Sequence record: NC_049817.1 | From: Escherichia phage tonnikala | DNA: 51,277 bases | Strand: one strand, 5' to 3' | In this document: positions 14,201-38,052 of the stretch, piece by piece | How the letters are laid out: each line of letters opens with the position of its first letter | Numbering within the stretch: the first letter of the stretch is position 1 | Notes under the pieces: model-generated | What the model was told of the DNA's origin: nothing | Databases searched by the model: none | What the model saw: only the letters and a program-made list of their open reading frames with translations | Made by a program: the position numbers and the translations under genes

Positions 14201-14410
14201 TCAGATACGCCCATACAGATCACAGACTTCGTTGATAAAACAGCGTTGAGACTCTTTATCCTGCTTCTCAAACATCGCACGGCACTCATAGCGGTGATTA
14301 TGTACGATGACAACAACCATATTTTCAGGTGCTGACGGGTGACGCGCGGAAGCGTCGCAGATTGAAACATCCATACCCATCTCATGTGCTTTCTTGATCA
14401 CATCCAACAT
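14201..14410 (-). CDS. hypothetical protein
   Basis: Start set at MLDVIKK with AGGAG RBS 8 nt upstream. Confidence 0.4.
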   Translation of the reverse strand: MLDVIKKAHEMGMDVSICDASARHPSAPENMVVVIVHNHRYECRAMFEKQDKESQRCFINEVCDLYGRI

Positions 14411-23893: not shown

Positions 23894-24114
23894 TCGCATT
23901 ATCTTTCTGCATTGGTTTTATCATGGCTATCATTATCTTTTCCGTTGTCATGCGCTTTGCTTATAAGTTCGTGATTAATAAAGGTTGGTACGCTTCTGCC
24001 ATCTGGAGCGAAAAACAAAAGAAATGGCTTGTTCGTGGTCAATACCTGACAATCGGTAGCAAGATCCTTAATTCCATTCGAGCCAAAGATGGAAAAGTAA
24101 AATACACAGCTTAA
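23890..24114 (+). CDS. small membrane protein
   Basis: 74 aa; N-terminal transmembrane helix (LSFCIGFIMAIIIFSVVM). Confidence 0.45.
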   Translation: MIALSFCIGFIMAIIIFSVVMRFAYKFVINKGWYASAIWSEKQKKWLVRGQYLTIGSKILNSIRAKDGKVKYTA

Positions 24115-24120
24115 AAATCA

Positions 24121-24145
24121 CCCGCCGAACGGCGGGTTTTTTATT
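24121..24145 (+). terminator. rho-independent terminator
   Basis: CCCGCCG-AAC-GGCGGG hairpin followed by TTTTTT. Confidence 0.6.
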
Positions 24146-24155
24146 GCCCGTTGTC

Positions 24156-24164
24156 TGGTATAAT
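24156..24164 (+). promoter_or_regulatory. extended -10 promoter candidate upstream of packaging genes
   Basis: TGGTATAAT matches TGnTATAAT; about 30 nt upstream of the terminase small subunit start. Confidence 0.35.
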
Positions 24165-24192
24165 CAGGCATCTAACAAAAGGAGGATTAACA

Positions 24193-24720
24193 ATGGCTAA
24201 AAATGTTGAGCCTGCTGTAAAGGCATTAAATTTCAAAGAGTTATATAATAAAACCTATGGCGATATTGTTACGCTAAACAACCGCCACAAGTACACGCCG
24301 GAACAGGTTTTTGATATGGCGATCCGCTATTTCACTTGGGCCGAAGAGAATCACATCCAGGCGGCTGAAACTGCCTCCTTTCAGGGTGACGTGTACGAGA
24401 GCAGGGTTTACAAGCCTCGCGTTTTCACGGTAAACGGATTCAGCTTGTATCTCGGCGTTACTGAGGCGGCTGTAAGCAAGTGGCGTAAAGAGCCTGGATT
24501 CTGCGATGTGATGGAGTTTGTTGATAAAGTAATTTACGAGCAAAAATTCCAGCTTGCGGCAAACAACATGATTAACGCTGGATTTATCGGTAAAGAGATC
24601 GGAGTAGAGAAGCCAGCAACAGTGAGCGTTGAAGCGAGCGCGGCAGCTAATGCAAGCATTGACGCAGTAACTGCCGATGAGGTGAAAGAGGCTGTGATTG
24701 ATATTCTGGAGCAACTTTAA
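24193..24720 (+). CDS. terminase small subunit
   Basis: Start at MAKNVEP with AAGGAGG RBS; immediately upstream of and overlapping the large terminase. Confidence 0.6.
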   Translation: MAKNVEPAVKALNFKELYNKTYGDIVTLNNRHKYTPEQVFDMAIRYFTWAEENHIQAAETASFQGDVYESRVYKPRVFTVNGFSLYLGVTEAAVSKWRKEPGFCDVMEFVDKVIYEQKFQLAANNMINAGFIGKEIGVEKPATVSVEASAAANASIDAVTADEVKEAVIDILEQL

Positions 24721-26288
24721 TGATCATATGGGAAGATTTGACGGCGGCGCAAAAGCGAGCCATTAAAGAAATCAGTGAGCATTCATTCGAAAAGATGATC
24801 AGAATCTGGTTCCAATTATTGCAGGGGCAAAAATTCCAGAGCAACTGGCATTTTAGCTTATTGTGCAGTGAGGTAGAGAAGATCATCAATGGAGAGTCGC
24901 AGAATGTGATTTTCAACATTACGCCAGGTAGCGGCAAGACTGAGATTTTCTCGATCCACATGTCACCCTACGCGTCATTGAAAAGCCGGAAAGTGAGAAA
25001 CCTTAACCTTTCGTTTAGTGATGGCCTTGTCCAGCAAAACAGCAACCGGATAAAGGAGATTATTGGTTCTCCTGAGTGGCAAGAGCTATGGCCTGGAAAA
25101 CTGGCAAAGGCGAGCGCTAAAGATCTGATAGTCACCGAAGGCGGCAAGGTTAAATTGCAAGTTAACTCACGTTCTATTGGCGGCCAGGTAACAGGTTTGC
25201 GTGGCGGCTATATGGATGATGGTTTTACTGGTATGCTGGTTCTTGACGATCCAGACAAGCCGGATGACATGCTTTCTAAGGTCAAGCGCGAGGCTATTCA
25301 CATGCGGTTAAAAAACACAGTGCGATCGCGTCGAATGAAAGACACCACGCCAATCGTTATGGTGCAACAGCGACTACACGTTAATGATTCCACTTGGTTC
25401 ATGCTTAATGGCGGGATGGGTGGTATTGAGTTTAAAGTCGTGAGCATTCCGGCGCTGGTTACGAAAGAATACCGCGAAACGCTTCCTGATTGGTTGAAGT
25501 CTGAATTTGATCGTGATGTGCTGTCAAGTAAGCCAGTGATGATAGATGGTGTTGCTCATTATTCATTTTGGCCTGCGAAGGAAAGCGCGGAGGAGTTGCT
25601 CGCATTGCGCAATGCAGATCCTTACACGTTCGCCAGCCAATACCAACAGCAACCAATCGCGCTGGGCGGGAACGTGTTTAAAACAGAGTGGTTCCAGTAT
25701 TACGGCAGCGGCGAAAAATGCGCACTTCCTAAACCGGATCGCTTTGAATACACATTTATTACTGGAGATACCGCGCAGAAGGCCGGAGAGCTTAACGACT
25801 ATTCAGTTTTTTGTTATTGGGGGATGTATAAGAATCGCGTTTACTTCATTGATGGCATTCGCGGAAAGTGGGAAGCGCCGGATCTTGAATTAAATTTTAT
25901 TGCCTTCGTTAACCAGTGCTGGAAGCGCAATAAGGAGTGTGGCAGCTTGCGACGTATCCACATTGAGGATAAGGCCAGCGGCACGGGTTTGATTCAGGGG
26001 GCCAAAAAGAAGATCCAGATTGATATAAATCCCGTTCAGCGAAGCAATGACAAGGTAACGCGAGCAATGGACGCCGCGCCAGTGATGAGGGCAGGACGTG
26101 TGGCGCTGCCAGAAAATCACCCAATGCTGCCTGAGATACTGGCAGAGGTTGCAGCATTCACTTTTGATGATTCTCATCCCCATGATGATATTGTCGATAA
26201 TATAGTTGATGCTGTTAACGTCGAAATGAATTTGGCAGATGATCCGGTAGCAAGGATGAAAAAGCTGGCAGGTCTACGCAATAAATAG
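24720..26288 (+). CDS. terminase large subunit
   Basis: 522 aa; Walker A-like ITPGSGKTE in N-terminal ATPase region; precedes portal. Confidence 0.8.
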   Translation: MIIWEDLTAAQKRAIKEISEHSFEKMIRIWFQLLQGQKFQSNWHFSLLCSEVEKIINGESQNVIFNITPGSGKTEIFSIHMSPYASLKSRKVRNLNLSFSDGLVQQNSNRIKEIIGSPEWQELWPGKLAKASAKDLIVTEGGKVKLQVNSRSIGGQVTGLRGGYMDDGFTGMLVLDDPDKPDDMLSKVKREAIHMRLKNTVRSRRMKDTTPIVMVQQRLHVNDSTWFMLNGGMGGIEFKVVSIPALVTKEYRETLPDWLKSEFDRDVLSSKPVMIDGVAHYSFWPAKESAEELLALRNADPYTFASQYQQQPIALGGNVFKTEWFQYYGSGEKCALPKPDRFEYTFITGDTAQKAGELNDYSVFCYWGMYKNRVYFIDGIRGKWEAPDLELNFIAFVNQCWKRNKECGSLRRIHIEDKASGTGLIQGAKKKIQIDINPVQRSNDKVTRAMDAAPVMRAGRVALPENHPMLPEILAEVAAFTFDDSHPHDDIVDNIVDAVNVEMNLADDPVARMKKLAGLRNK

Positions 26289-26305
26289 CACTAATTGCTA
26301 AAAAG
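26286..26305 (+). promoter_or_regulatory. conserved motif variant (TAGCACTAATTGCTAAAAAG)
   Basis: TAG is the terminase stop codon; TATAAT follows, then a terminator hairpin. Confidence 0.4.
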
Positions 26306-26317
26306 TTATATAATCAA

Positions 26318-26342
26318 GGCTGGATTTTTCCAGCCTTTTTTA
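26318..26342 (+). terminator. rho-independent terminator between terminase and portal
   Basis: GGCTGGA-TTTT-TCCAGCC hairpin followed by TTTTTT. Confidence 0.5.
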
Positions 26343-26358
26343 TTATGGAGATTTGACG

Positions 26359-27651
26359 ATGAGCGAAAAAACAAGGCTAGTTAAGGCCGATGGATACAAC
26401 GAGATTTTCAAGGGTAGCAAGGGTAATGGGCGTGTAGAGTTGCCTTTCTTTATGCAAGGGTTCGAATACACCACGCACGCTGATTTTTACATTCGCGACG
26501 GCCTAGCAAAACGAATTATCGACGTTGTTCCAGAAGAAATGGTGACGCCTGGATTTAATATTGATGGCGTGGAAGATGAGGAGAGTTTTAGATCTTTGTG
26601 GGATGAGAAGCGACTAAACGATAAAATCATTGATGCGCTTTGCTGGTCGCGTCTTTTTGGTGGCGCTGCAATCGTGGCAATCGTTCAGGATGGCAGGTCG
26701 TTAAAGTCACCTGTAGCGCCTGGTGCAATCCTTGAAGATGTTCGCGTTTACGATCGCTTTCAGGTTAGGGTAGAAAAGCGCGAAACTAATCCACGCAAGG
26801 TAAGATATGGTGAGCCATTAATTTACACCATTTCACCTGGTGCCGACTTGCCAGAATACCAGGTTCACTATTCGCGAGTCTGTATTATCGACGGTGAGCG
26901 GCTACCAAATCAGCGGCGTAAATCAAATGATGGGTGGGGTGAGTCGATCCTGAATAAGCGACTTGTTGAGGCTATTTGTGATTATAACTACTGCGAAAAC
27001 TTAGCAACTCAATTGTTGCGACGTAAGCAACAGGCGGTATGGAAAGTTAAAGGTCTTGCTGATCTTTGTGATGATGATGATGGTGTTAGTGCCGCACGTT
27101 TGCGACTTGCTCAAGTTGATGATGAGGGTGGCGTAGGCCGTGCGATCGGCATTGATGCGGAAGATGAGGAATATGATGTTTTAAATTCTGATATTTCTGC
27201 CGTCGATTCGTTCTTGGAAAAGAAGATGGATCGCATTGTATCTCTTTCCGGCATCCATGAAATCATCCTCAAAAACAAGAACGTTGGCGGTGTTAGCGCG
27301 AGCCAAAACACGGCGCTTGAAACCTTCTACAAGCTGATCGACCGAAAGCGAAAGGAAGAATACAAACCAATCCTTGAATTTCTGATCCCGTTCCTTATTC
27401 AAGAGGAAGAATGGAGTATTCAGTTTGCGCCGTTAAGCGTTCCCAGCGAAAAGGACCAGGCCGAGATCTTGAACAAGAATATTGATTCTTTGAGCAAGGC
27501 TATTGACGGTCAATTCATGGATACAGAGGAGGCGCGCGACACATTGCGAGCCATTGCGCCTAACGTTAAACTAAAAGACGGCAATAACATTAAATTACCT
27601 GAGCAGGACGTAGAGCCGGAGCCAGGAACAACCGAGGGTAACGATCAATGA
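26359..27651 (+). CDS. portal protein
   Basis: About 430 aa directly after terminase, acidic C-terminus; start set at ATG with GGAG RBS (track begins 6 nt earlier). Confidence 0.7.
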   Translation: MSEKTRLVKADGYNEIFKGSKGNGRVELPFFMQGFEYTTHADFYIRDGLAKRIIDVVPEEMVTPGFNIDGVEDEESFRSLWDEKRLNDKIIDALCWSRLFGGAAIVAIVQDGRSLKSPVAPGAILEDVRVYDRFQVRVEKRETNPRKVRYGEPLIYTISPGADLPEYQVHYSRVCIIDGERLPNQRRKSNDGWGESILNKRLVEAICDYNYCENLATQLLRRKQQAVWKVKGLADLCDDDDGVSAARLRLAQVDDEGGVGRAIGIDAEDEEYDVLNSDISAVDSFLEKKMDRIVSLSGIHEIILKNKNVGGVSASQNTALETFYKLIDRKRKEEYKPILEFLIPFLIQEEEWSIQFAPLSVPSEKDQAEILNKNIDSLSKAIDGQFMDTEEARDTLRAIAPNVKLKDGNNIKLPEQDVEPEPGTTEGNDQ

Positions 27652-28403
27652 TAGTGAAAGGCGTCGTTAAACAATGGCGCTTTCCTGAAGCAAGCGAGCG
27701 GCAATTGCGCCGCTCAATTCAGGAGGCGATAAGGGATCTTGTTGTGCTGATGCGCAGAAAAACAAAGGAAATGAAATTTGACGCGGACACCGAAGAAATC
27801 AACGCCGCAGAGGATGAGATTAGTAGCTTCGCGTTAAAGCTAATAGCTGGCATCGCCGCATCACTTCCGGCTATCGGCCTTGCTGTTTATAAATTCAACG
27901 CAAAGCAATTTATTAACGTAGCGAAATCAACGGGAGGTAAGTCAAATTCCGCCGTTATCATCCTTATGGCTATTGGGGCCAATGCGAATGAGAGTTGGTA
28001 TAGGACGCTATACGGTCAATGGCATGACATGACGATCGCATCTCTTCAAAAACTATTTGGAAACATTGTGTCTGACTGGTCAACCAATATCAGATCGGCA
28101 AACTTTCGCGGAATGAGAGATAGTCAGGTTAATGAATTGGCTGGTAAGAGGTTCGCAGTTTATAGCTCTTGGGGTAAGACAAGGGCGGAAAACATCATAG
28201 GCGCTTGGAATAGTAGACTCATGCGCCAGCGTCTGTATGATGCAAAAGTAACTCATTATTTTTGGCATGGTATGCTTGATGACAGAGAGCGATTGCAGCA
28301 TGTACAATGGGAAGGTAAGCGCATTGCGCTAGATTCTGAACATGATTTTCCTGGTGAGCCTTTCGGTTGTCGTTGTTGGGCCATACCAGATTGGAACAGT
28401 TAA
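27648..28403 (+). CDS. head morphogenesis / minor head protein (Mu F / SPP1 gp7 family)
   Basis: Position after portal; C-terminal H...CRC motif (HDFPGEPFGCRCWAIP). Confidence 0.6.
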   Translation: MIVKGVVKQWRFPEASERQLRRSIQEAIRDLVVLMRRKTKEMKFDADTEEINAAEDEISSFALKLIAGIAASLPAIGLAVYKFNAKQFINVAKSTGGKSNSAVIILMAIGANANESWYRTLYGQWHDMTIASLQKLFGNIVSDWSTNIRSANFRGMRDSQVNELAGKRFAVYSSWGKTRAENIIGAWNSRLMRQRLYDAKVTHYFWHGMLDDRERLQHVQWEGKRIALDSEHDFPGEPFGCRCWAIPDWNS

Positions 28404-28413
28404 GAGGTGTTAA

Positions 28414-29529
28414 ATGAAGGCAAAACAAAGATTTGATAGCGCCAAAGTAAAGGCGCACTTTGATGATAACGGATTTTTAGTTGATCGCCCTATCGTGGCG
28501 CGAATTGGTTTACAAGTCTATCAGACTCCTTTCGGTGAGCGCAGAGAATTTCGTCCGGCGTCCGAAGTATTCAAGGCCGACTCACTCGCCACCTTCGCAG
28601 GGAAGCCAGTCACGGTTGGTCACGTTACGGTAACTCCAGAAAACGCCGAGAAGGTTGTGGTTGGTTCTTGTGCTGGCGCTGGTGTGCCGAACGGGATCGG
28701 CGTAGAGGTTCCGTTAAGCATTTACTCAAAACGAGCAATCGAAAGCGCGAAGAAGCGAGACACGGCGGAGATTTCAGTTGGTTATACATCGGTTGATATT
28801 GATAAACCAGGCTGGGGCAATAATAAAACTGGTGAGTACGTTTTCGATGAGGATGTTAGCGAAGACTGGAAACCTGATTCTCCTGATTGGGTTAAGTTTG
28901 ATGCAATCCAGACTGAAATCAAGGTAAACCACATCGCTTTAGTTTTCCGAGGTCGAGCCGGTATTGCAAAATTAAACCTTGATAGCCAGCAAGATTTTCC
29001 GTATAGTGACGACGTTATTAACAACAAAGAGGATCAAATCATGACTGTAAAAATTAAACTGGATGGCGCTGTAGAATTTGATGTGCCGAAAGCAGTTGCG
29101 GATCACATTGAAACGCTTAAAGCTGATGCCAAAGCACAGAAAGAAAAGGCGGATGGCCTGGAAGCTGAGCGCGATGCGCTGCAAACCAAAGTAGATGGCA
29201 TTCAGGATCAGATTGATGCCGCAGTCAAGAAGGCAAAAGAAGATGCCGAGCAATATGCTCAATTAGTGGCAGACGCTAAAGAGTTAGGCATCAAGTGCGA
29301 CGGCCTGGACGCGAAAGCAATCAAGGTTGCATACATCAAAGAAGTTATGGGTAATGACGTTTCTGATAAAACTGATGCCTATATCGAAACAGCTTTCGAC
29401 ATCGCCAAAAACTCTGATAAAATGTCGGCGCAGCGTAAGAGCATTAAGGGTGACTCTTTCGCGAATGAAAAACAGGATGAAGCAGGTTCTAAGCTGAATC
29501 CTAACGCTCGTTTTGAGAAACTGAAATAA
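28414..29529 (+). CDS. putative capsid scaffolding / prohead core protein
   Basis: 371 aa between head morphogenesis and capsid genes; Ala/Lys/Glu-rich coiled-coil-like C-terminal half. Confidence 0.45.
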   Translation: MKAKQRFDSAKVKAHFDDNGFLVDRPIVARIGLQVYQTPFGERREFRPASEVFKADSLATFAGKPVTVGHVTVTPENAEKVVVGSCAGAGVPNGIGVEVPLSIYSKRAIESAKKRDTAEISVGYTSVDIDKPGWGNNKTGEYVFDEDVSEDWKPDSPDWVKFDAIQTEIKVNHIALVFRGRAGIAKLNLDSQQDFPYSDDVINNKEDQIMTVKIKLDGAVEFDVPKAVADHIETLKADAKAQKEKADGLEAERDALQTKVDGIQDQIDAAVKKAKEDAEQYAQLVADAKELGIKCDGLDAKAIKVAYIKEVMGNDVSDKTDAYIETAFDIAKNSDKMSAQRKSIKGDSFANEKQDEAGSKLNPNARFEKLK

Positions 29530-29541
29530 GGAGTAATTAAA

Positions 29542-30051
29542 ATGGCTAAAATTGGAGCAAGTTATTTTGACACTATGGCGCGTGCGCTTCCTGGTCAGGT
29601 ATCCGACACGTCAGCATATAACATCGACGGCGCTTGCGTTCTTGACAAGGAAGACGGCATCCCAATCCTGGTTGGCGTGGCTGTTAAGCTAAAAGGCGTT
29701 GACTCAATGGGTAATAAGCTGATCGACGCTATTTCTGGTGGTGGTGATGTTCCTTATGGCGTTGGCGTTCGTTCGCACTTTCAAACTACGGCTGATAATG
29801 GTCGAATGGTTTATGAGGCTGGCGGCGGAATCAACGTTATGACTGAGGGCCGTGTCTGGATGATTGGCGATGATTCCGATAAAAGCAAAAAGCCAGAATA
29901 TCGTGAGCCTGTAAAAATTGATGAAAACTCTGGCAAGGTGAAAAGTGCTGGCGCTATCAATACAAACTGGGTTTACACTGGCGATAAAACCACTTTTGGA
30001 ACTGGCAATAATATGTTGACTTTGTTTGAAGTTCAGGTCTTCCCAAGCTAA
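29542..30051 (+). CDS. head-associated protein, possible decoration protein
   Basis: 169 aa; N-terminal domain paralogous to the next gene (YNIDG...; RVWMIGDD versus GVVWCVTQ). Confidence 0.4.
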   Translation: MAKIGASYFDTMARALPGQVSDTSAYNIDGACVLDKEDGIPILVGVAVKLKGVDSMGNKLIDAISGGGDVPYGVGVRSHFQTTADNGRMVYEAGGGINVMTEGRVWMIGDDSDKSKKPEYREPVKIDENSGKVKSAGAINTNWVYTGDKTTFGTGNNMLTLFEVQVFPS

Positions 30052-30057
30052 AATCAA

Positions 30058-30083
30058 GGCGCTCGCTTGAGCGCCTTTTTTTA
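30058..30083 (+). terminator. rho-independent terminator
   Basis: GGCGCTC-GCTT-GAGCGCC hairpin followed by TTTTTTT. Confidence 0.55.
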
Positions 30084-30102
30084 TTATGTAAGGAGAAATG
30101 AA

Positions 30103-30885
30103 ATGGCTAAAGATTATTCATCTGTTATGGGTCTTTCTTGTCCTGGTTGTTTGGTTGATTCTACTCGCTACAATATTGATGGTACTGGCGTTTGTGGTTC
30201 TGAATCGATCATTGCTGGTAAGGTTGTTTTCTTTAAGGAGAGAATCGGCGGTTACAACATATTTGTTGACCACAAAGAGGAGGACGCTGTGGTTGCAGGT
30301 GTTGCGCTAAGGAGCAACATAACAACGACAGTTAACGAGGAAGACGGGTATTCCGACTACAAGGAAGGAGACGCCATCAACATTTTGACAAGAGGTGTTG
30401 TATGGTGTGTAACTCAAACAATTGAATCTCCCCCTGAGCATGGGGATCTTGTTTATGTTAACAATGATGGTTTTGTAGCAAAGAGTGATGGCGATGAAAT
30501 CGTCGATGGCTGGATTTTTACTGGTGACTTCTACAAGTTTGATGAAACAATAAACATAGTCGGAGTCAGAATAACGCCGCTTTATCATAGAAAATATCTT
30601 CTCACTGGTGCGATCATTGAGGCTGAAAATGGATACATAGAGGGAACAGAGACGATTGATAACGTCCAATTAAAGGTGACAGTTGTTCCGACTTGGGCCG
30701 ACGACAAAACTGGTCATTGGACAATTACAAATCCACAAGATCCAATGGTTGCCAGTGTTAGTCGAACAGGCCTTGTTGTTCCTACTGGTGTGGGAGGTAG
30801 AGTTAACGTCAACTGGACTGCTAATGATGGTTCTGGAGTTGCTGACCAGTTTGATATTGTATTTACGAAAACCGCTGGCGAATAA
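30103..30885 (+). CDS. head-associated protein with C-terminal Ig-like domain
   Basis: Start at MAKDYSS with AAGGAG RBS; N-terminal domain paralogous to previous gene; C-terminal beta-rich Ig-like segment. Confidence 0.45.
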   Translation: MAKDYSSVMGLSCPGCLVDSTRYNIDGTGVCGSESIIAGKVVFFKERIGGYNIFVDHKEEDAVVAGVALRSNITTTVNEEDGYSDYKEGDAINILTRGVVWCVTQTIESPPEHGDLVYVNNDGFVAKSDGDEIVDGWIFTGDFYKFDETINIVGVRITPLYHRKYLLTGAIIEAENGYIEGTETIDNVQLKVTVVPTWADDKTGHWTITNPQDPMVASVSRTGLVVPTGVGGRVNVNWTANDGSGVADQFDIVFTKTAGE

Positions 30886-30910
30886 CTAATAGCATAAAAA
30901 AACATTGCAC

Positions 30911-30928
30911 GTTTAACAAAAAGTGCTA
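30911..30928 (-). promoter_or_regulatory. conserved motif copy in reverse orientation upstream of capsid gene
   Basis: GTTTAACAAAAAGTGCTA on + strand, followed by terminator hairpin and capsid RBS. Confidence 0.4.
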
Positions 30929-30935
30929 TCATCTA

Positions 30936-30961
30936 GGCCGTTACATTTAACGGCCTTTTTT
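30936..30961 (+). terminator. rho-independent terminator immediately upstream of capsid gene
   Basis: GGCCGTTA-CATT-TAACGGCC hairpin plus TTTTTT, 15 nt before capsid ATG. Confidence 0.5.
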
Positions 30962-30975
30962 ATGGAGGAAGCAAA

Positions 30976-31947
30976 ATGGCTAAAAAATATGATGAACTAG
31001 ATGCTACGATTGTGGCGAATCATTTGCAGATTCAGGGTGTTAAGTCCGACGCTTCTGATATGGGCATTTGGACCGCTCAAGAGCTACACAAGATCCGCTC
31101 TACCGCATACGAGAAAGAGTATCCGGCAGGTTCCGCGCTTCGCGTATTCCCTGTAACAAACGAGCTTTCTGATACTGACAAGACTTTCGAATATCAGACT
31201 TTTGATAAGGTTGGCTACGCGAAAATTATCGCCGACTACACCGATGATCTGCCGACTGTGGACGCGTTGATGACTTCTGAGTTTGGCAAAGTGTTCCGCC
31301 TGGGTAACGCTTATCTAATCTCCATTGATGAGATTAAAGCAGGTCAGCGAACTGGCAAGAGCCTGTCAACTCGCAAGGCTAACGCTGCGCAAAATGCGCA
31401 TGATCAGTTGATTAACTTCCTGGTGTTCAAAGGTTCCAAGCCTCATAAGATCGTTTCCGTTTTCGATCATCCTAACCTTACGAAAATTGTTTCTAAAGGC
31501 TGGATGAGCCAGGACGGCAATACCAAGTTCCCGGAAGTGGCAAGCGATGAACTGGAGGCCGCAATCGAAACGATCGAGGAAGTAACCAAAGGTCAGCACC
31601 GCGCGACCAATATCCTGATCCCGCCGTCCATGCGCAAAGTCCTGACGGTTCGAATGGAAAATACCACTGAAAGTTATCTGGAATACTTCCAGAAGCAAAA
31701 CGGCGGTATCACTATCGACTCTATCGCAGAGCTTGAGGATATTGACGGCAAAGGTACGAAAGGTTGCTTGGTTTACGAAAAAGATCCAATGAACATGAGC
31801 ATTGAGATTCCAGAAGCGTTTAACATGCTTCCGGCGCAGCCAAAAGACCTACATTTCAAGGTTCCTTGCACTTCCAAGTGTACTGGCCTTACGATTTATC
31901 GTCCGTTTACGATGGTGCTCATTACCGGCTTGAAAAAAGCTGAGTAA
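30976..31947 (+). CDS. major capsid protein
   Basis: 323 aa, strong GGAGG RBS, position between scaffold-like and connector genes, flanked by terminators. Confidence 0.7.
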   Translation: MAKKYDELDATIVANHLQIQGVKSDASDMGIWTAQELHKIRSTAYEKEYPAGSALRVFPVTNELSDTDKTFEYQTFDKVGYAKIIADYTDDLPTVDALMTSEFGKVFRLGNAYLISIDEIKAGQRTGKSLSTRKANAAQNAHDQLINFLVFKGSKPHKIVSVFDHPNLTKIVSKGWMSQDGNTKFPEVASDELEAAIETIEEVTKGQHRATNILIPPSMRKVLTVRMENTTESYLEYFQKQNGGITIDSIAELEDIDGKGTKGCLVYEKDPMNMSIEIPEAFNMLPAQPKDLHFKVPCTSKCTGLTIYRPFTMVLITGLKKAE

Positions 31948-31958
31948 TTAGATAACAT

Positions 31959-31988
31959 GGGGAGCCTTAAGGGTTCCCCTTTTTTTAT
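31959..31988 (+). terminator. rho-independent terminator after capsid gene
   Basis: GGGGAGCC-TTAA-GGGTTCCCC hairpin plus TTTTTTT. Confidence 0.55.
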
Positions 31989-32004
31989 TTATGGAGTGCA
32001 TAAA

Positions 32005-32271
32005 ATGAGCAAAAATTTAAAACTTAAAGTAACTGGCGTTTGCATGATTATTATGGACGGTAAGCGTTATCATCCTGGTGATGAAATTGAAATTGAATCT
32101 GAACGCATTAATGATTCCGCAATTGAATACCTGATCGCTCGCGGTGATGTGGAAGTTAAAGACAATTCCGAAATTAACGAGCAAATCAAGGCGAAAGCGG
32201 AGAAGAAGCGCAAAAAAGATCCTACCGAGGGCAAGAGCCGCAAAGAGCTAGAGGACGGCGGCGAATATTAA
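32005..32271 (+). CDS. hypothetical head-module protein
   Basis: Start set at MSKNLKLK; Lys-rich C-terminus; 88 aa. Confidence 0.4.
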
Positions 32272-32276
32272 TAATT

Positions 32277-32299
32277 GGGGCGCTTATGCGCCCTTTGTC
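32277..32299 (+). terminator. terminator-like hairpin
   Basis: GGGGCGC-TTAT-GCGCCCC then TTTGTCA; near-identical to the hairpin at 47787. Confidence 0.4.
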
Positions 32300-32317
32300 A
32301 CATCTGGAGAAAACAAA

Positions 32318-32737
32318 ATGGTAGATGAATTTTACACAGACGCTGAAATCATGCAGCAAATCGTAAAGTTAGCGCCGCCAATGCAACAGGTCGATCCCGA
32401 TTTAATTGTGGCATGGATTGAGCTTGCTAAAGAGTTTGTTTGCAAAAAACGGTTTAAAAACTCATACCCTAAAGCGGTTGCGCTTTACACTCTTCACCTT
32501 ATGACCTTAGACGGGGCAATGAAACAGGAAGGTGAAAGCGTAGAAAGCTATTCCCGCCGCGTCGCCTCGTTCACTCTGACTGGTGAGTTTAGTCAGACGT
32601 TTGATCGAATCTCTTCCGATACAAGCGGAAAGCAGATCCGACAAACGCCGTGGGGCAAAATGTACGAAGTGTTAAACCGTAAGCACGGTGGCGGCTTTGG
32701 CCTTGTGACTGGATTGCGCCGGAGATGCTGCCGATGA
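32318..32737 (+). CDS. head-tail connector protein (gp6-like)
   Basis: 139 aa; position and size fit head-tail adaptor proteins. Confidence 0.45.
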
Positions 32738-33105
32738 ACTACAATGAGATTGCAAGAATGGCTACGGCTGGGATTAACTTTTTCAGCGACGCTAACGGTA
32801 TGTTTAAGTGCATCACGCAGCAGGGAGGGGTTGAGATTATCGGTGGAGAGGAAGTTACCAAGCCGGAGATTTCAGTGATGATAAAGGGGCTTGTTAGATC
32901 TCCGAGGACTAGAGAGGTTGACGGTGAAACAATCCGAGTAACCGACAAGTTGGGGATATTCACCAATGAAACTGAGATCAAAAATGGTTATCAGATTGAA
33001 ATTGATGGCGAACGTTATGTTGTCGTTGAAGCAAGACCAGTCAGGCAGACTAACATCACGGCGGCTTATCGTCCGATATTAAGGAGGATTGCTGTGCATG
33101 GCTGA
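32734..33105 (+). CDS. head-tail joining protein
   Basis: Start set at MNYNE overlapping previous stop (ATGA); small neck-module protein. Confidence 0.4.
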
Positions 33106-33541
33106 TAATTATAAGATCAGGGAATTTCACGGTGATATAAGCAGGTGGATTGATTCAGTAAGCAGCGGCCTTGTTGATTGCGTTGAAATGTTCGCGACAA
33201 ACGTCCACGAGGATCTTGTAAATCGCTCGCCAGTTGATGCGGGCCGATATAAAGCCAACTGGCAGATAACAGCAAACAAGCCGCCGCTATATGCGCTCAA
33301 CCAATACGATCGCGATGGTGGTAAAACCATTGCAGAAGGTAAGCGAGCAATATATGCAATCATGCGTGGCGGTGGCGCGGTGCGGTCAATCTATTTTTCA
33401 AACATGCTCATTTACGCCAACGCGCTTGAATACGGGCATTCAAAACAAGCGCCGTCCGGCGTACTTGGAATCGTGGCGGTAAAGCTGCGATCTTATATGG
33501 CTAAGGCAATAAAGGATTCGAGGGCAAAAAATGCACTATGA
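33098..33541 (+). CDS. HK97 gp10-like neck / tail-completion protein
   Basis: Motif RSPVDAGRYKANW resembles the conserved PVDTG segment of HK97 gp10 family; AAGGAGG RBS. Confidence 0.5.
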   Translation: MADNYKIREFHGDISRWIDSVSSGLVDCVEMFATNVHEDLVNRSPVDAGRYKANWQITANKPPLYALNQYDRDGGKTIAEGKRAIYAIMRGGGAVRSIYFSNMLIYANALEYGHSKQAPSGVLGIVAVKLRSYMAKAIKDSRAKNAL

Positions 33542-33932
33542 TTTAATGTTGGCGGCAAGAAAGGCGCTGGCGGCTGAATATGAATCACGATTTAAGATAG
33601 CCTATGAAAACGTTGATTTTGTGCCGCCTGGAGATGGTTCTATGTGGTTAAAATTTAACTACATGGAAGCAGACACGGATCGCATATCTCTTGATAGAAA
33701 ATGTGTTTCTTATATCGGTTTGGTTCAGGTTGGAATTGTCATTCCTCCTGGCGGTGGCACTGATAAAGCGCGTTTGCTGGCTAAAGAGATTGCGAGATTT
33801 TTCTATGATGGTAGAATGCTTGAAACTGGCTATATTAGCGAGGGGGCAAACGTCCACACGTTACTAAAAAGTGAAACAGGTTGGTTATTGCCGATCCGTT
33901 TCAGTGTTAGGCTTGATACAAAGGAGGAATAA
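33531..33932 (+). CDS. tail terminator protein
   Basis: 133 aa immediately upstream of major tail protein. Confidence 0.45.
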   Translation: MHYDLMLAARKALAAEYESRFKIAYENVDFVPPGDGSMWLKFNYMEADTDRISLDRKCVSYIGLVQVGIVIPPGGGTDKARLLAKEIARFFYDGRMLETGYISEGANVHTLLKSETGWLLPIRFSVRLDTKEE

Positions 33933-33934
33933 TC

Positions 33935-34597
33935 ATGCACTTGCCTAATGGTTCTCAAATTTTCATCGGCGTTAATATGGGTGAGCCAATTAGCGCGACT
34001 CAAATCAGCAATGCTGATAATCCTGTTTTTACAACCGAAAACACTCAAAGCATCCAAAAAGGCGCTTATGTTCTTATTGAAACATCTTCCTGGGGCAAAC
34101 TGGTTAGTCGTGTGTTGCGAGTAAAGGAAGTATCTGATAACGCAAGTGTAACTCTTGAAGGAGTAGATACAACCGATCAGAACGTGTTTCCGGCTGGTTC
34201 TAATACAGCAACCTTCCGAGAAGTAAAATCATGGGTAGAGATTCCTTGCGTACAGGATCTTGCGCAGGACGGAGGCGAGCAACAGTATTACACTTATCAG
34301 TGTTTGGCTGATGACCAGGAGCAGCAGTTACCGACATACAAGAGCGCAGTTTCTCTTACCTACACCTTCGCGCATGAATATGATAATCCGATTTATCCGA
34401 TCTTGCGCGAGGCTGAGGAATCCGGCGACGTAACCGCTTTGCGTATGTACGTTCCGAAAGCTAAAGAGATGCGTTGCTGGGCTGGCGTATTGTCCTTTAA
34501 TGACATTCCGCAAACCACTATGAACGAAATGGAAACTGTTTCCCTTTCCGTATCTCTGAAAGGTCGATTCACGTTCTTACCTTCTGACGTTAAGTAA
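33935..34597 (+). CDS. major tail protein
   Basis: 220 aa with strong AAAGGAGG RBS, directly upstream of the chaperone/frameshift pair and tape measure. Confidence 0.6.
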   Translation: MHLPNGSQIFIGVNMGEPISATQISNADNPVFTTENTQSIQKGAYVLIETSSWGKLVSRVLRVKEVSDNASVTLEGVDTTDQNVFPAGSNTATFREVKSWVEIPCVQDLAQDGGEQQYYTYQCLADDQEQQLPTYKSAVSLTYTFAHEYDNPIYPILREAEESGDVTALRMYVPKAKEMRCWAGVLSFNDIPQTTMNEMETVSLSVSLKGRFTFLPSDVK

Positions 34598-34602
34598 AAC
34601 AA

Positions 34603-34624
34603 GGGGCGTTGCGCCCCTTTTTTC
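34603..34624 (+). terminator. rho-independent terminator
   Basis: GGGGCG-TTG-CGCCCC hairpin plus TTTTTTT after major tail gene. Confidence 0.5.
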
Positions 34625-34662
34625 ATTCCTGTAAAATCAATCTATCAAATAAATTAATTCCA

Positions 34663-34681
34663 CTTTTAACAAAAAGTGCTA
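34663..34681 (-). promoter_or_regulatory. conserved motif copy in reverse orientation abutting RBS of tail chaperone gene
   Basis: CTTTTAACAAAAAGTGCTA followed directly by AAGGAG and ATG at 34697. Confidence 0.4.
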
Positions 34682-34696
34682 TAAGGAGATCTTGAG

Positions 34697-35014
34697 ATGG
34701 CAAAGATGAAACTAACGTTAGGCCCACTGCCTGATTTTAAACTGCCTGTTTCTTTCGTGCTTCCAAATGGTGATGAGCAAGTTATTGTTTTCACTGTGCG
34801 CCACAAGAAGGCAAGCGAGATTCACGAACGATACACGGCAGAAAAGCCGATGAGCGACGTAGAAATGATCACCTTCCTTGCTTCCGGTTGGGATCTGGAA
34901 GATGAATTTAACGAGGAAAACGTTGCTAAATTGCTGGATTATTACCCTTCTGCGTCATTATCGCTGACTGGTCATTATATGAAAGCACTTGCGGGGCAGC
35001 GGGTAAAAAACTAA
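34697..35014 (+). CDS. tail assembly chaperone (gpG-like)
   Basis: 105 aa directly upstream of tape measure; ends at slippery site. Confidence 0.65.
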   Translation: MAKMKLTLGPLPDFKLPVSFVLPNGDEQVIVFTVRHKKASEIHERYTAEKPMSDVEMITFLASGWDLEDEFNEENVAKLLDYYPSASLSLTGHYMKALAGQRVKN

Positions 35015-35331
35015 AGCGGGCGGTTTACCTGTTTTACCTCAAGCCGCCAACTGACGCACAATTAGAGGCCGTCGGCCTATCCCGTTCAGACTACGAAGGG
35101 GAGGAGCCGCCGGAGGTAATTTTTGATGAATCAATGTTTCAATCTTGGGATCTGTTTTGCGCAATGCAGACGCAATGGAGATCTACTAGCGGCAGCGTGT
35201 ATGGGTTCGACTATAACGTTTTGCCCATGCTTTTTGACATTTACAAGATTGATGATCGTGAGATGGCGCTAAATGATTTGCGCATCATGGAACAAAAGGC
35301 GCTAGAAATGATTCATTCAAACAAAACATAA
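34697..35331 (+). CDS. tail assembly chaperone frameshift product (gpGT-like, -1 shift at 35005-35011)
   Basis: Slippery heptamer A_AAA_AAC at 35005-35011; -1 frame open with no stops to 35331. Confidence 0.55.
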
Positions 35332-35352
35332 GCGCCGCGAGGCGCTTTTTTA
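35331..35352 (+). terminator. terminator-like hairpin
   Basis: AGCGCC-GCGA-GGCGCT plus TTTTTT. Confidence 0.4.
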
Positions 35353-35370
35353 ATATCTGGAGGTTTTAAA

Positions 35371-38052
35371 ATGGCTGAAAAATACGCTGGCCTAACGCTA
35401 GGCGTTGACGTGTCGCAGGTCAACAATGCTGTTAAATCATTGCAGCAATTCAAGAAGGCAAACGACGACGCAAAAAAAAGCGTTAATGAATTTGTTGATT
35501 CTGAGGTTGTGGCCCGACAGCAAGCAAAACAGCTTGCCGAAGAACTGGCGCGCCAGAAAGCAGAATTTAAGAAAATCCAGGAGTCAATTGATCCCACCGC
35601 ATCAAAGATGGATAAGCTGAGAAAGGCAGCGACACAGCTTGATGCGCTATGGAAAAAGGGCGTTGTTCCTGATCAGACTTTTTTTGAGCTTGGGGCAATT
35701 CTTGAGACGCAGCAAAACAAGCTGATCGCAACAAAAAAAGCGATGACAGAGGAAGGCCGCGCGGCGCTTGAGGAATCAAAGAACAAGGCGCGCGCAGCGG
35801 AAGAGGCTAAAAAATTCGTCAAGGCTTTGCGTGAGCAGGAAGAAGCAGCAGGAAAAAGCAAGTCTGAATTGCTGGAAATGAAAGCGGCACAGCTTGGAGT
35901 TAGCCAGGAGGCAGCACCTTACATCGCAAGGCTGAAAGAGCAGGAAAAGCAGATCCAGAAACTTGGGATTTCTACAGGCCAATACAAACAAGCAATGCAG
36001 CAATTGCCAATGCAGATCACAGACGTGGTGACTTCACTTGCTTCTGGTATGCCTGTTTGGCTGGTTGCAATCCAGCAGGGCGGACAGATTAAGGATTCTT
36101 TTGGTGGCGCATCCAATGCTTTAAAAGCGTTGCTATCTTTCCTTAATCCGGTAAACGTTGCGTTTGGCTTGCTTTCCGGCACGCTGGCAATTGCTGCATA
36201 TAATGCCTACAAAACACAGACAGAGTTTGAGGCAATTAAAAAAACCGTTCAGGAAACAACTGGCTTGACTGGTGATTTTGCCGAAAAGATTGCTACCGGA
36301 ATCCAGGAGCTTTCCGACAAGACAGGCGAAAGCGCCGAAGATCTGGCAAAGGCTTACATCACCACGAAAGACGGCGCGAGCGAGGCGATTAAAAAACTGG
36401 TTGACGTTGGCATGACTTATGATGACGCAAAAAAGAAAGTCAACGAGTACAAAGGCGCATCTAGCTTTGTTGGCCTGAATAACGACATTGCAAACCACAA
36501 AAATAAAATCCTTGAGTTGGGCGAGTCGTGGTATGAAGTTTTGAAAGCGAAGCGTGATTACGCTTCCCCGTCCGGCGGCCTGTTAGGTAAAGAGCTTGGC
36601 TATGTTAATCCTATGCTTAAGTTTGCACTTAACACTTATGAAGACATTGGAAAGGTCGTAAAAGATGCTAATAAGGACATGGCTGAACGAGCGGAGCGCA
36701 TCGACAAAGAAAACCTGGCCTTGAACAGAGTGAGAGCAGCACAGGAGGCTTTAAACAAAGCCATTGAAGATCAGAAGGGCGTGGCGCGTTCGGCTGATGA
36801 AGAACTGAAAAAGCGTGCGGCTGAAAACGTGGAGTTCAGACGCAAAGAGCTTGAGGAGATCAAGAAGCAGGAGCAGAAAAAGAAAGAGGCTAAAGGCGGA
36901 ATAGTTCGCGGCCCTACTGAGCAGCTTGATAAAGAGTTGTACGTTTTAAAAGCGCAACTGGAAACTCTTAAAGAGCATCGCACTGTTAATGATGTTATTT
37001 CTCGCCAGCGTAAATCTTTATGGAGCATCGAAAAGCAGATCGAGATCCTGGAGGATGCGCAGAGCAAGCGTAAATTGACCGGAGCGGAACAGGCGCTACT
37101 AAACGAGCAAAAATCCGTTTTGGAAATGGCAAGGCAAAAGGCTGAATTAGGGGATCAGATTGTTTTGCAGGAGCGCAAAAACAAGCTGGAGCAAGATAGC
37201 ATTAAGTTTATCCGTGAAACGCAGGCGGCTATTGATGTGCTTGGCCTTAAGCAACTTGGCTACACTGAAAAGCAGATCGAGCGTGAGCTAGAGTTACGCA
37301 AGCTGCGCACAGACTACGAGGCGCAAGGAGGAAGCGTTAGCGATGAAGTTTTTCAGCAAATGGAGGCGAAACTTAAGCAGTATTATCAGACACAGGATGA
37401 GGTTCAAGGCAACTGGTTGGCAGGAGCAAAAAACGCATGGGAGCTATTCGCGGAAGATGCAAACAATGCCTATGGCAATGTTCAGCAGATCGCAAGCGAG
37501 GCGTTAAACGGCCTTACAAACCAATTAGCGAATTTTATCGCTACTGGCAAGGCAAACTTTAAAGACTTCTCGACGGCTATCATCAAAATGATTATTCAGA
37601 TGATCACGAAAATGGTTGTCTTTAATGCGTTATCTGGCCTGATGGGTGGTCAAACCTGGACGATGGGGAGCTTGCTTAAGAACATTGGCGGATTTGCTGG
37701 CGGTGGATACACTGGCGACGGCGGGAAGTATGAGCCAGCCGGAATTGTTCATAAGGGCGAATTTGTCATGACGAAGGAGGCGACGCAGCGTATCGGGGTA
37801 GGCAACTTGTACCGCATGATGCGAGGCTATGCTAACGGCGGCGCGGTTGGTAGTTCCGGCTATACTGGCGGTGGAGTTGTCACTGGTGGAGCACCTCAAT
37901 TTAACATCGGTGGGATTGATGTTAGCATCAATAACGGCAGCGATCCGAAGGGCATCGAAACTGGCGTTAAGATGATCTTTACTGATATGATTAAACGTTC
38001 CTGTATGCAGGGCGGAGAGGTTTACGAATTTGTTATGAGCAAGCGAGGTTGA
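35371..38052 (+). CDS. tail tape measure protein
   Basis: 893 aa, coiled-coil-rich Ala/Lys/Glu/Gln composition, Gly-rich C-terminal region, position after G/T pair. Confidence 0.85.
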   Translation: MAEKYAGLTLGVDVSQVNNAVKSLQQFKKANDDAKKSVNEFVDSEVVARQQAKQLAEELARQKAEFKKIQESIDPTASKMDKLRKAATQLDALWKKGVVPDQTFFELGAILETQQNKLIATKKAMTEEGRAALEESKNKARAAEEAKKFVKALREQEEAAGKSKSELLEMKAAQLGVSQEAAPYIARLKEQEKQIQKLGISTGQYKQAMQQLPMQITDVVTSLASGMPVWLVAIQQGGQIKDSFGGASNALKALLSFLNPVNVAFGLLSGTLAIAAYNAYKTQTEFEAIKKTVQETTGLTGDFAEKIATGIQELSDKTGESAEDLAKAYITTKDGASEAIKKLVDVGMTYDDAKKKVNEYKGASSFVGLNNDIANHKNKILELGESWYEVLKAKRDYASPSGGLLGKELGYVNPMLKFALNTYEDIGKVVKDANKDMAERAERIDKENLALNRVRAAQEALNKAIEDQKGVARSADEELKKRAAENVEFRRKELEEIKKQEQKKKEAKGGIVRGPTEQLDKELYVLKAQLETLKEHRTVNDVISRQRKSLWSIEKQIEILEDAQSKRKLTGAEQALLNEQKSVLEMARQKAELGDQIVLQERKNKLEQDSIKFIRETQAAIDVLGLKQLGYTEKQIERELELRKLRTDYEAQGGSVSDEVFQQMEAKLKQYYQTQDEVQGNWLAGAKNAWELFAEDANNAYGNVQQIASEALNGLTNQLANFIATGKANFKDFSTAIIKMIIQMITKMVVFNALSGLMGGQTWTMGSLLKNIGGFAGGGYTGDGGKYEPAGIVHKGEFVMTKEATQRIGVGNLYRMMRGYANGGAVGSSGYTGGGVVTGGAPQFNIGGIDVSINNGSDPKGIETGVKMIFTDMIKRSCMQGGEVYEFVMSKRG

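Follow-up and report, generated by a model that had tools for sequence, protein, structure and literature searches.

The closest described relative of the locus treated here is the head decoration of phage T1. In the cryo-electron microscopy (cryo-EM) structure of T1 (PDB 9KZJ) the head is a T=7 shell with 415 copies of the capsid protein gp47 (Viruses 2025, PMC11945409). The shell carries 80 homotrimers of gp49 and 60 heterotrimers made of one gp48 and two gp49 subunits, and a figure legend shows a hexon surrounded by two heterotrimers and four homotrimers (PMC11945409). Both decoration proteins have a β-tulip fold, and the N-terminal arm of gp49 extends into the shell (PMC11945409). The C-terminal domain of gp48 is flexible, is seen as weak protruding density and was modelled by the authors with AlphaFold3; they proposed that this immunoglobulin (Ig)-like domain aids adsorption (PMC11945409). 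Here we describe two adjacent genes of Escherichia phage tonnikala (NC_049817.1), A and B, within a stretch of 51,277 nt that is called the window below. A and B very probably encode a capsid cement (decoration) pair, the counterparts of T1 gp49 and gp48, with the T1-type arrangement. The two genes, the parts of B and the capsid gene beside them are as follows.

29542-30051, + strand: gene A, predicted major cement (decoration) protein of 169 aa, T1 gp49 counterpart (PF22758, 1.1e-23)
30090-30095, + strand: Shine-Dalgarno sequence AAGGAG of gene B, read from the sequence
30103-30885, + strand: gene B, predicted minor cement paralogue with a C-terminal Ig-like domain, 260 aa, T1 gp48 counterpart (PF22758, 5.8e-22, and Big_2)
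30103-30576, + strand: cement (β-tulip-type) domain of gene B, aa 1 to ~158
30607-30864, + strand: Ig-like (Big_2) β-sandwich of gene B, aa ~169-254 (the Pfam match, aa 187-246, is 30661-30840)
30976-31947, + strand: major capsid protein, HK97 fold family PF09950, 77% identical to T1 gp47

An initial annotation of this DNA had claimed that the N-terminal ~150 residues of the two products are related and that the second product adds a β-rich Ig-like domain. Both claims hold. The pairwise alignment that it had proposed as a check returned clear similarity rather than none: by BLASTP, residues 1-159 of A and 1-153 of B are 31% identical with 46% positives, far beyond chance (E=8e-14, as a single comparison with composition-based statistics). 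The two proteins also match the same families. PF22758 (Phage_cement, 'Structural cement protein (E217 gp24/Pam3 gp6)') is matched at 84.4 bits by A and 78.8 bits by B, with a cut-off of 27, and PF23982 (XM1 gp53 minor capsid protein) at 52 and 69.7 bits, respectively, both above the curated cut-off. phrog_1989 is matched by both proteins, and an NCBIfam scan of A and B gave no match. Proteins of PF22758 and PF23982 are trimeric β-tulips that sit at threefold and quasi-threefold axes, where an N-terminal arm locks capsomers (Pam3 and E217 papers). The N-terminus of B is 3-4 residues shorter than that of A.

The C-terminal extension is found in B only. It matches Big_2 (PF02368) over aa 187-246 with 28.1 bits (cut-off 22.8) and a PHROG named 'Ig domain containing protein'. 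The structure of B was modelled with AlphaFold2 on a 16-sequence alignment (mean pLDDT 86.5). The model has an all-β N-terminal domain followed by a separate β-sandwich at ~169-254, with a pLDDT of ~88-95. The first Foldseek matches of the model are the FCWL1 capsid (9kmg), the FCWL1 portal vertex (9kmh) and the T1 capsid (9kzj), with TMt values of 0.76-0.82 and root-mean-square deviations (rmsd) of 2.2-3.7 Å to the T1 and FCWL1 cement chains. XM1 7kmx_a (TMt 0.66) and Pam3 8hdt_G (TMt 0.67) come next. The C-terminal domain matched the Big_2-CBM56 structure 7quz (~90 columns at an rmsd of 2.4-3.0 Å), as well as the Ig domains of T5 pb6 and lambda gpV. We also considered that the Ig domain of B is a copy of the phage's own tail-tube Ig domain; this was rejected, as the two have no similarity at E<=100.

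The match to T1 and FCWL1 extends to sequence and to gene order. Against PDB sequences, A matched the 158-aa 'decoration protein / cement protein II' of 9KMG, 9KMH and 9KZJ (E=2.6e-36), and B matched, over its full length, the 255-aa 'BIG2 domain-containing protein' of 9KZJ (9kzj_H, E=2.1e-13). BLASTP of A against T1 gp49 gave 46% identity (E=1e-42), and that of B against T1 gp48 gave 29% identity over 242 aa (E=7e-16). The Ig domains of B and gp48 are 44% identical over 62 aa (E=2e-9) and have the motifs A(T/D)DKTGxW and NxxWTAND in common. Since the Ig domains are this similar, the fused cement and Ig architecture of B and gp48 appears to have a common origin. The T1 gene order, 50 (protease), 49, 48, 47 (major capsid), is the order in the window. 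A megablast of 28400-32300 found Escherichia phages MikeNSara (99.1%) and FritzSarasin (BASEL Bas04; 98.6%) over the full length (3.9 kb), both classified as Drexlerviridae, Tempevirinae, Warwickvirus. By this identity the window is a T1-like phage of the Drexlerviridae, genus Warwickvirus.

Homology, domain architecture, synteny and the conserved regulatory signals described below come directly from this analysis; the stoichiometry of 360 A to 60 B to 415 capsid proteins and the positions on the head would carry over from T1. By homology with T1, trimers of A would occupy threefold and quasi-threefold positions of a T=7 shell and clamp neighbouring capsomers, with the major capsid protein (30976-31947) as the partner that they bind. 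In 60 of the 140 trimers a single subunit would be B and the other two A. The 140 local threefold sites of a T=7 lattice fall into 20 sites on icosahedral threefold axes (one per hexon), 60 sites among three hexons (three per hexon) and 60 vertex-adjacent sites (two per hexon). We infer that the heterotrimers are the vertex-adjacent trimers, because only this class matches both the two heterotrimers per hexon and the total of 60. The FCWL1 evidence consists of PDB chain names and chain counts, and it agrees with this placement: in the portal-vertex entry 9kmh, the 255-aa protein is present as exactly five chains. Each vertex would then be ringed by five Ig-like domains that point outward on flexible tethers. 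A different arrangement, in which A and B decorate the head independently, with A homotrimers at most sites, B homotrimers at a subset and no mixed trimer, is suggested by Pam3 gp6 and E217 gp24, members of the same Pfam family that form homotrimers only, and sequence alone cannot separate homo- from hetero-oligomers. We consider it unlikely. T1 gp48 was seen only as the single subunit of a heterotrimer with two gp49 (PMC11945409), and the five FCWL1 chains fit one chain per vertex-adjacent trimer, not three.

The cement genes are the variable part of the Warwickvirus head module. Two Warwickviruses, KMB46 and EC125, have the following identities to the window.

Protease: KMB46 98.7%, EC125 98.7%
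Major capsid protein: KMB46 98.1%, EC125 98.8%
A: KMB46 93.5%, EC125 75.9%
N-terminal domain of B: KMB46 79.6%, EC125 57.7%
Ig half of B: KMB46 45.5%, EC125 43.0%

The DNA identity profile drops from ~97% to 35-60% over 30200-30900 for KMB46 and over 29600-30900 for EC125. In both, identity recovers exactly at the conserved predicted promoter that forms the right-hand boundary. Such a profile is characteristic of a cassette replaced by recombination, and the cement genes are a recombination hot spot. The cement cassette, and above all the outer half of B, is swapped between phages that are otherwise 97-99% identical, which marks the exposed cement layer as what varies in a head that is constant elsewhere. 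An alignment of the N-terminal domains also showed a PGC motif that is common to B-type proteins and absent from A-type proteins. The Warwickvirus B protein has the extra cysteines C13, C16, C31 and C102 (window 30136-30150, 30193-30195 and 30406-30408), none of which is found in the A type. Disulfides are possible for the B-type cysteines; disulfide networks are described in the tail tube of T1 (PMC11945409).

A tblastn survey with B against 50,697 phage records matched 527 records, mostly of Escherichia and Klebsiella phages; a k-mer-based search with B had given only 28 proteins. Three arrangements were found among the Drexlerviridae examined. Rtp and the Webervirus KpV522 have one cement gene. 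A pair whose second member lacks an Ig domain is found in TLS (HtjA and HdeC, the latter of 146 aa), Hanrivervirus aalborv (second product of 144 aa) and Vibrio phage Vc1 (138 aa). In T1, phiL, Klebsiella phage K50, Henuseptimavirus and Warwickvirus, the second gene of the pair has Big_2. A neighbour-joining tree of the N-terminal domains puts every A-type protein in a single clade (100% bootstrap support), and in no genome does B group with its own A. Thus, the duplication appears to be older than the genera examined and not a recent event within the genome. The initial annotation had read the pair as the duplication and divergence of a decoration protein. That reading is supported, as both proteins belong to the trimeric cement family and are syntenic with T1 gp49 and gp48, which were seen on the capsid by cryo-EM. 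It needs refining in three respects: the duplication appears not to be recent, the T1 paralogues co-assemble rather than act independently, and the Ig domain is optional. Among the tblastn matches, 19 records named 'Campylobacter phage' (e.g., MG065667 and MG065657) contain T1-like cement genes whose products are ~40% identical to the N-terminal domain of B. These genes resemble those of E. coli Hanriverviruses, and the records may be mislabelled or contaminant enterobacterial phages.

The Ig domain has probably come off more than once. The Ig-less B of aalborv groups with the Ig-bearing B of IsaakIselin (Bas10) with 93.5% support, which points to recent loss of the domain. The IsaakIselin homologue itself has an in-frame TAG between the cement and Ig domains (positions 2293-2295 of its record) and is annotated as two ORFs (open reading frames). 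Programmed read-through of this codon, as a means of sub-stoichiometric Ig display, was considered and rejected: Enterobacter phage AS5, which is 96% identical to IsaakIselin, has GAG at that codon. The TAG is therefore a plain nonsense mutation or a sequencing error and not recoding. In this viable BASEL phage the Ig domain has been truncated, whether in nature or in the laboratory. The Ig domain is dispensable: TLS, Hanrivervirus and Vc1 lack it, and in IsaakIselin the stop codon removes it.

This history bears on what B is for. B could be chiefly an adhesin, Hoc-like or a 'capsid fibre', with its cement-like N-terminal domain a mere anchor. The T1 authors proposed a role in adsorption (PMC11945409), one GenBank record names a homologue 'capsid fiber protein', and no part of the head module varies more than the outer half of B (43-45% identity where the capsid proteins are at 98-99%), a pattern expected of a ligand-binding surface. 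We nevertheless regard this as very unlikely. The Ig-less B-type proteins (138-146 aa) are kept in TLS, aalborv and Vc1, and the GAG-to-TAG change in IsaakIselin removes the Ig domain from a viable phage in which the gene is kept without an adhesin module. Since the B-type cement domain is kept where the Ig domain is lost, the conserved role of B is probably structural, that of filling the asymmetric vertex-adjacent site, with the Ig domain an accessory. Weak reversible binding of the Ig domain to cell-surface or environmental glycans, of the kind that the initial annotation had considered, may be conjectured.

Other functions have been assigned to homologues by name. FritzSarasin labels A a 'capsid decoration protein' and B a 'hypothetical protein', as MikeNSara does for B. 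Elsewhere in GenBank, homologues are labelled HtjA (head-tail joining), zonula occludens toxin (Zot), scaffolding protein, capsid fiber protein or preneck appendage. That A and B are in fact a scaffolding protein, a Zot, an HtjA or a preneck appendage is scarcely tenable: the names do stand on matching GenBank records, but they are legacy or transferred labels, these functions found no supporting Pfam, PHROG or NCBIfam match for A or B, and the mature T1 and FCWL1 capsids have homologues (E=1e-36 and 1e-13) modelled on their outer face. A chance or compositional likeness of A and B is refuted by the BLASTP comparison with its composition-based statistics and, independently, by the hidden Markov models, since each protein hits the same curated models at 1e-22 or better.

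The head module reads portal, Mu-F-like protein, protease, A, B, major capsid protein, so that A and B adjoin the HK97-fold capsid gene. The three genes that precede A are the following.

26353-27651: portal protein (PF06381)
27648-28403: Mu-F-like head morphogenesis protein
28414-29529, + strand: prohead protease/scaffold (DUF2213; phrog_530, head maturation protease; labelled prohead protease in FritzSarasin)

A mechanical list of ORFs puts B at 30067-30885, with a TTG start at 30067, a codon within a hairpin. An ATG at 30103, preceded by AAGGAG at a distance of 7 nt, gives a product of 260 aa and begins a 783-nt coding sequence (CDS) with the start annotated in FritzSarasin and MikeNSara, which are 98.6-99% identical phages. 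Because this ATG has a Shine-Dalgarno sequence and matches the start annotated in near-identical phages, we take B to be 260 aa long, and its real start is ATG 30103 and not TTG 30067. After the capsid gene, the mechanical list has an ORF at 31957-32271 that starts within the capsid-gene terminator (31959-31979). Close relatives annotate a shorter CDS of 267 nt here (DUF7444 / phrog_2716, function not assigned). This gene is kept beside the capsid gene across the family and is the counterpart of T1 gp46.

Gene B is flanked by signals that resemble a terminator and a promoter.

30056-30082, + strand: intrinsic-terminator-like hairpin and T-run between A and B (9-bp stem, 6 GC pairs, 4-nt loop)
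30905-30932, + strand: promoter-like element 5' of the capsid gene (TTGCAC, 16 nt, extended -10; TGCTATCAT)
30935-30961, + strand: second hairpin and T-run (9-bp stem), between the -10 element and the ribosome-binding site of the capsid gene

Directly after A, the stem and loop of a canonical intrinsic terminator span 30056-30077. A hairpin and U-tract between A and B were found at the same position in 10/10 two-gene Drexlerviridae examined, with stem sequences that differ, and the T1 equivalent (14235-14267) is annotated as a rho-independent terminator. The stem of the second hairpin covaries between phages (GGCCGTTA/TAACGGCC, AGCCGTGA/TCACGGTT and GGCTGTTA/TAACAGCC). The promoter-like element is nearly invariant across 10 Drexlerviridae and includes a phage-wide 18-mer, TTTAACAAAAAGTGCTAT (30912-30929), which is invariant 5' of the capsid gene in these ten phages. 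The single-gene phages KpV522 and Rtp have the order cement gene, terminator, promoter, capsid gene. Because B lies between the predicted terminator and the predicted promoter, less transcript is expected of B than of A or the capsid gene, and this agrees with the T1 copy numbers (60 versus 360 and 415). Transcription would reach B only by reading through the terminator that follows A, and the capsid gene would be boosted again by its own promoter. We infer that the two signals keep the expression of B low.

On its two strands, the window has 13 exact copies of the 18-mer, or 17 if <=2 mismatches are allowed, where 0.01 would be expected. Sites other than that at the capsid gene include 3573, 4644, 10930, 13693, 14997, 16362, 16825, 18041, 19273, 22069 and 34665. 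Several copies lie directly 3' of a GC-rich hairpin, as if the terminator and the promoter-like element were one punctuation unit. The invariance of the 'spacer' within the 18-mer suggests recognition by something beyond the sigma-70 hexamers. At the capsid gene, 2 nt separate the end of the -10 element from the 5' arm of the second hairpin (window 30927-30961). A transcription start ~7 nt after the -10 element would fall inside the stem, so that transcripts from this promoter could escape the terminator, whereas read-through from upstream would not. The structural module (24000-36000) has 25 terminator-like hairpins, compared to 12.9 +/- 3.5 in shuffles. Strong hairpins on the + strand are at 24120, 26316, 30056, 30935, 31959, 34601 and 35330, where they follow the genes for the terminase, cement, capsid and major tail proteins, in agreement with the many rho-independent terminators annotated in T1.

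Taken together, we tentatively propose that B is a vertex-specific cement subunit whose dose is set by a transcriptional 'valley' and whose outer half is an exchangeable cassette; this full combination is possible, though less than even odds. Several observations weigh against it or against the identification with T1 on which it builds. The N-terminal domain of B scores about equally against T1 gp49 (4.6e-15) and gp48 (2.1e-13). The neighbour-joining tree did not recover the B-type proteins as a single clade with support, and T1 gp48 had only 42-57% support; as the tree gives gp48 no supported place among the B-types, the orthology of B rests on synteny and the shared Ig domain. The stoichiometry and placement would be transferred from T1, while B is only 29% identical to gp48. 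Repeated loss of the Ig domain means that the domain is not essential. Finally, a consensus promoter scan left out the capsid-gene element, whose -35 matches at 3/6 positions; the case for this promoter rests on its conservation in 10 phages and on the 18-mer, not on the scan.

The finding changes little overall; the arrangement is already known from T1. It does give the 260-aa 'hypothetical protein' of Warwickviruses, Bas04 among them, a name, that of a minor cement protein with an Ig-like domain, and it corrects legacy labels such as Zot, HtjA and scaffolding protein. What is added to the T1 work is incremental and partly inferential. It concerns how old the duplication is, the Ig domain having been lost repeatedly, the terminator and promoter on either side of B, the hot spot of mosaicism and the probable placement at the vertices. 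The conserved layout of terminator, gene and promoter suggests how a ratio of ~6:1 between two paralogues of the same trimer might be set. Because it is naturally dispensable and naturally swapped, the Ig domain is a plausible capsid display site, with ~60 copies clustered at the vertices, for the engineering of T1-like phages. If the outer half of B is an exchangeable cassette, the ring of Ig domains around each vertex would be a head-borne diversity module comparable to tail-fibre cassettes.

Ig-like domains on phage heads have precedents. T4 Hoc and T5 pb10 are Ig-like capsid decorations that sit as monomers at hexon centres, are non-essential and have been proposed to mediate weak adhesion; a general pattern of 'Ig-like domains on phages' was reportedly described by Fraser et al. 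in 2006. They resemble B in having a flexibly tethered Ig-like domain on the head surface. In B, unlike in Hoc and pb10, this domain is fused to a subunit of a cement trimer and not carried by a hexon-centre monomer. Among trimeric cement proteins, lambda gpD, P74-26 gp87 and TW1 gp56 are threefold clamps whose fold is put in the same class by the T1 (PMC11945409) and E217 papers. We found no gpD family in the Pfam scan of A and B and none of these three proteins in the top 50 Foldseek matches of the B model.

The herpesvirus triplex (one Tri1, two Tri2) is also a 1:2 heterotrimer of related subunits at local threefold sites of an HK97-fold shell, and it was cited by the T1 authors as an analogous fold (PMC11945409). 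It differs in filling all threefold sites and in being required for assembly, whereas T1-type mixed trimers take 60/140 sites. With no detectable sequence relation to A or B, the likeness is one of analogy only. Within the cement family proper, Pam3 and E217 have one gene and homotrimers only, whereas a second paralogue and mixed trimers are found in T1-like phages. A further difference is at the C-terminus: Pam3 has a seven-stranded domain, A has none and B has Big_2. The two-paralogue arrangement is a feature of the T1 group and is not new.

T1 itself is the nearest comparison. The tonnikala phage and T1 belong to the same family, and in both the order is protease, short paralogue, terminator, long paralogue, major capsid protein, with the long paralogue made of a cement domain and Big_2. 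They differ in that the window phage is a member of the Tempevirinae (Warwickvirus) and T1 of the Tunavirinae, in the strong divergence of B, and in a loop of A that is 11 residues longer than in gp49 and lysine-rich (DDSDKSKKPEYRE). For T1, the literature already covers the family and its fold, the pair of paralogues, their mixed trimer and the conjecture of adhesion (PMC11945409). The Warwickvirus pair is a version of that T1 gp49/gp48 cement system.

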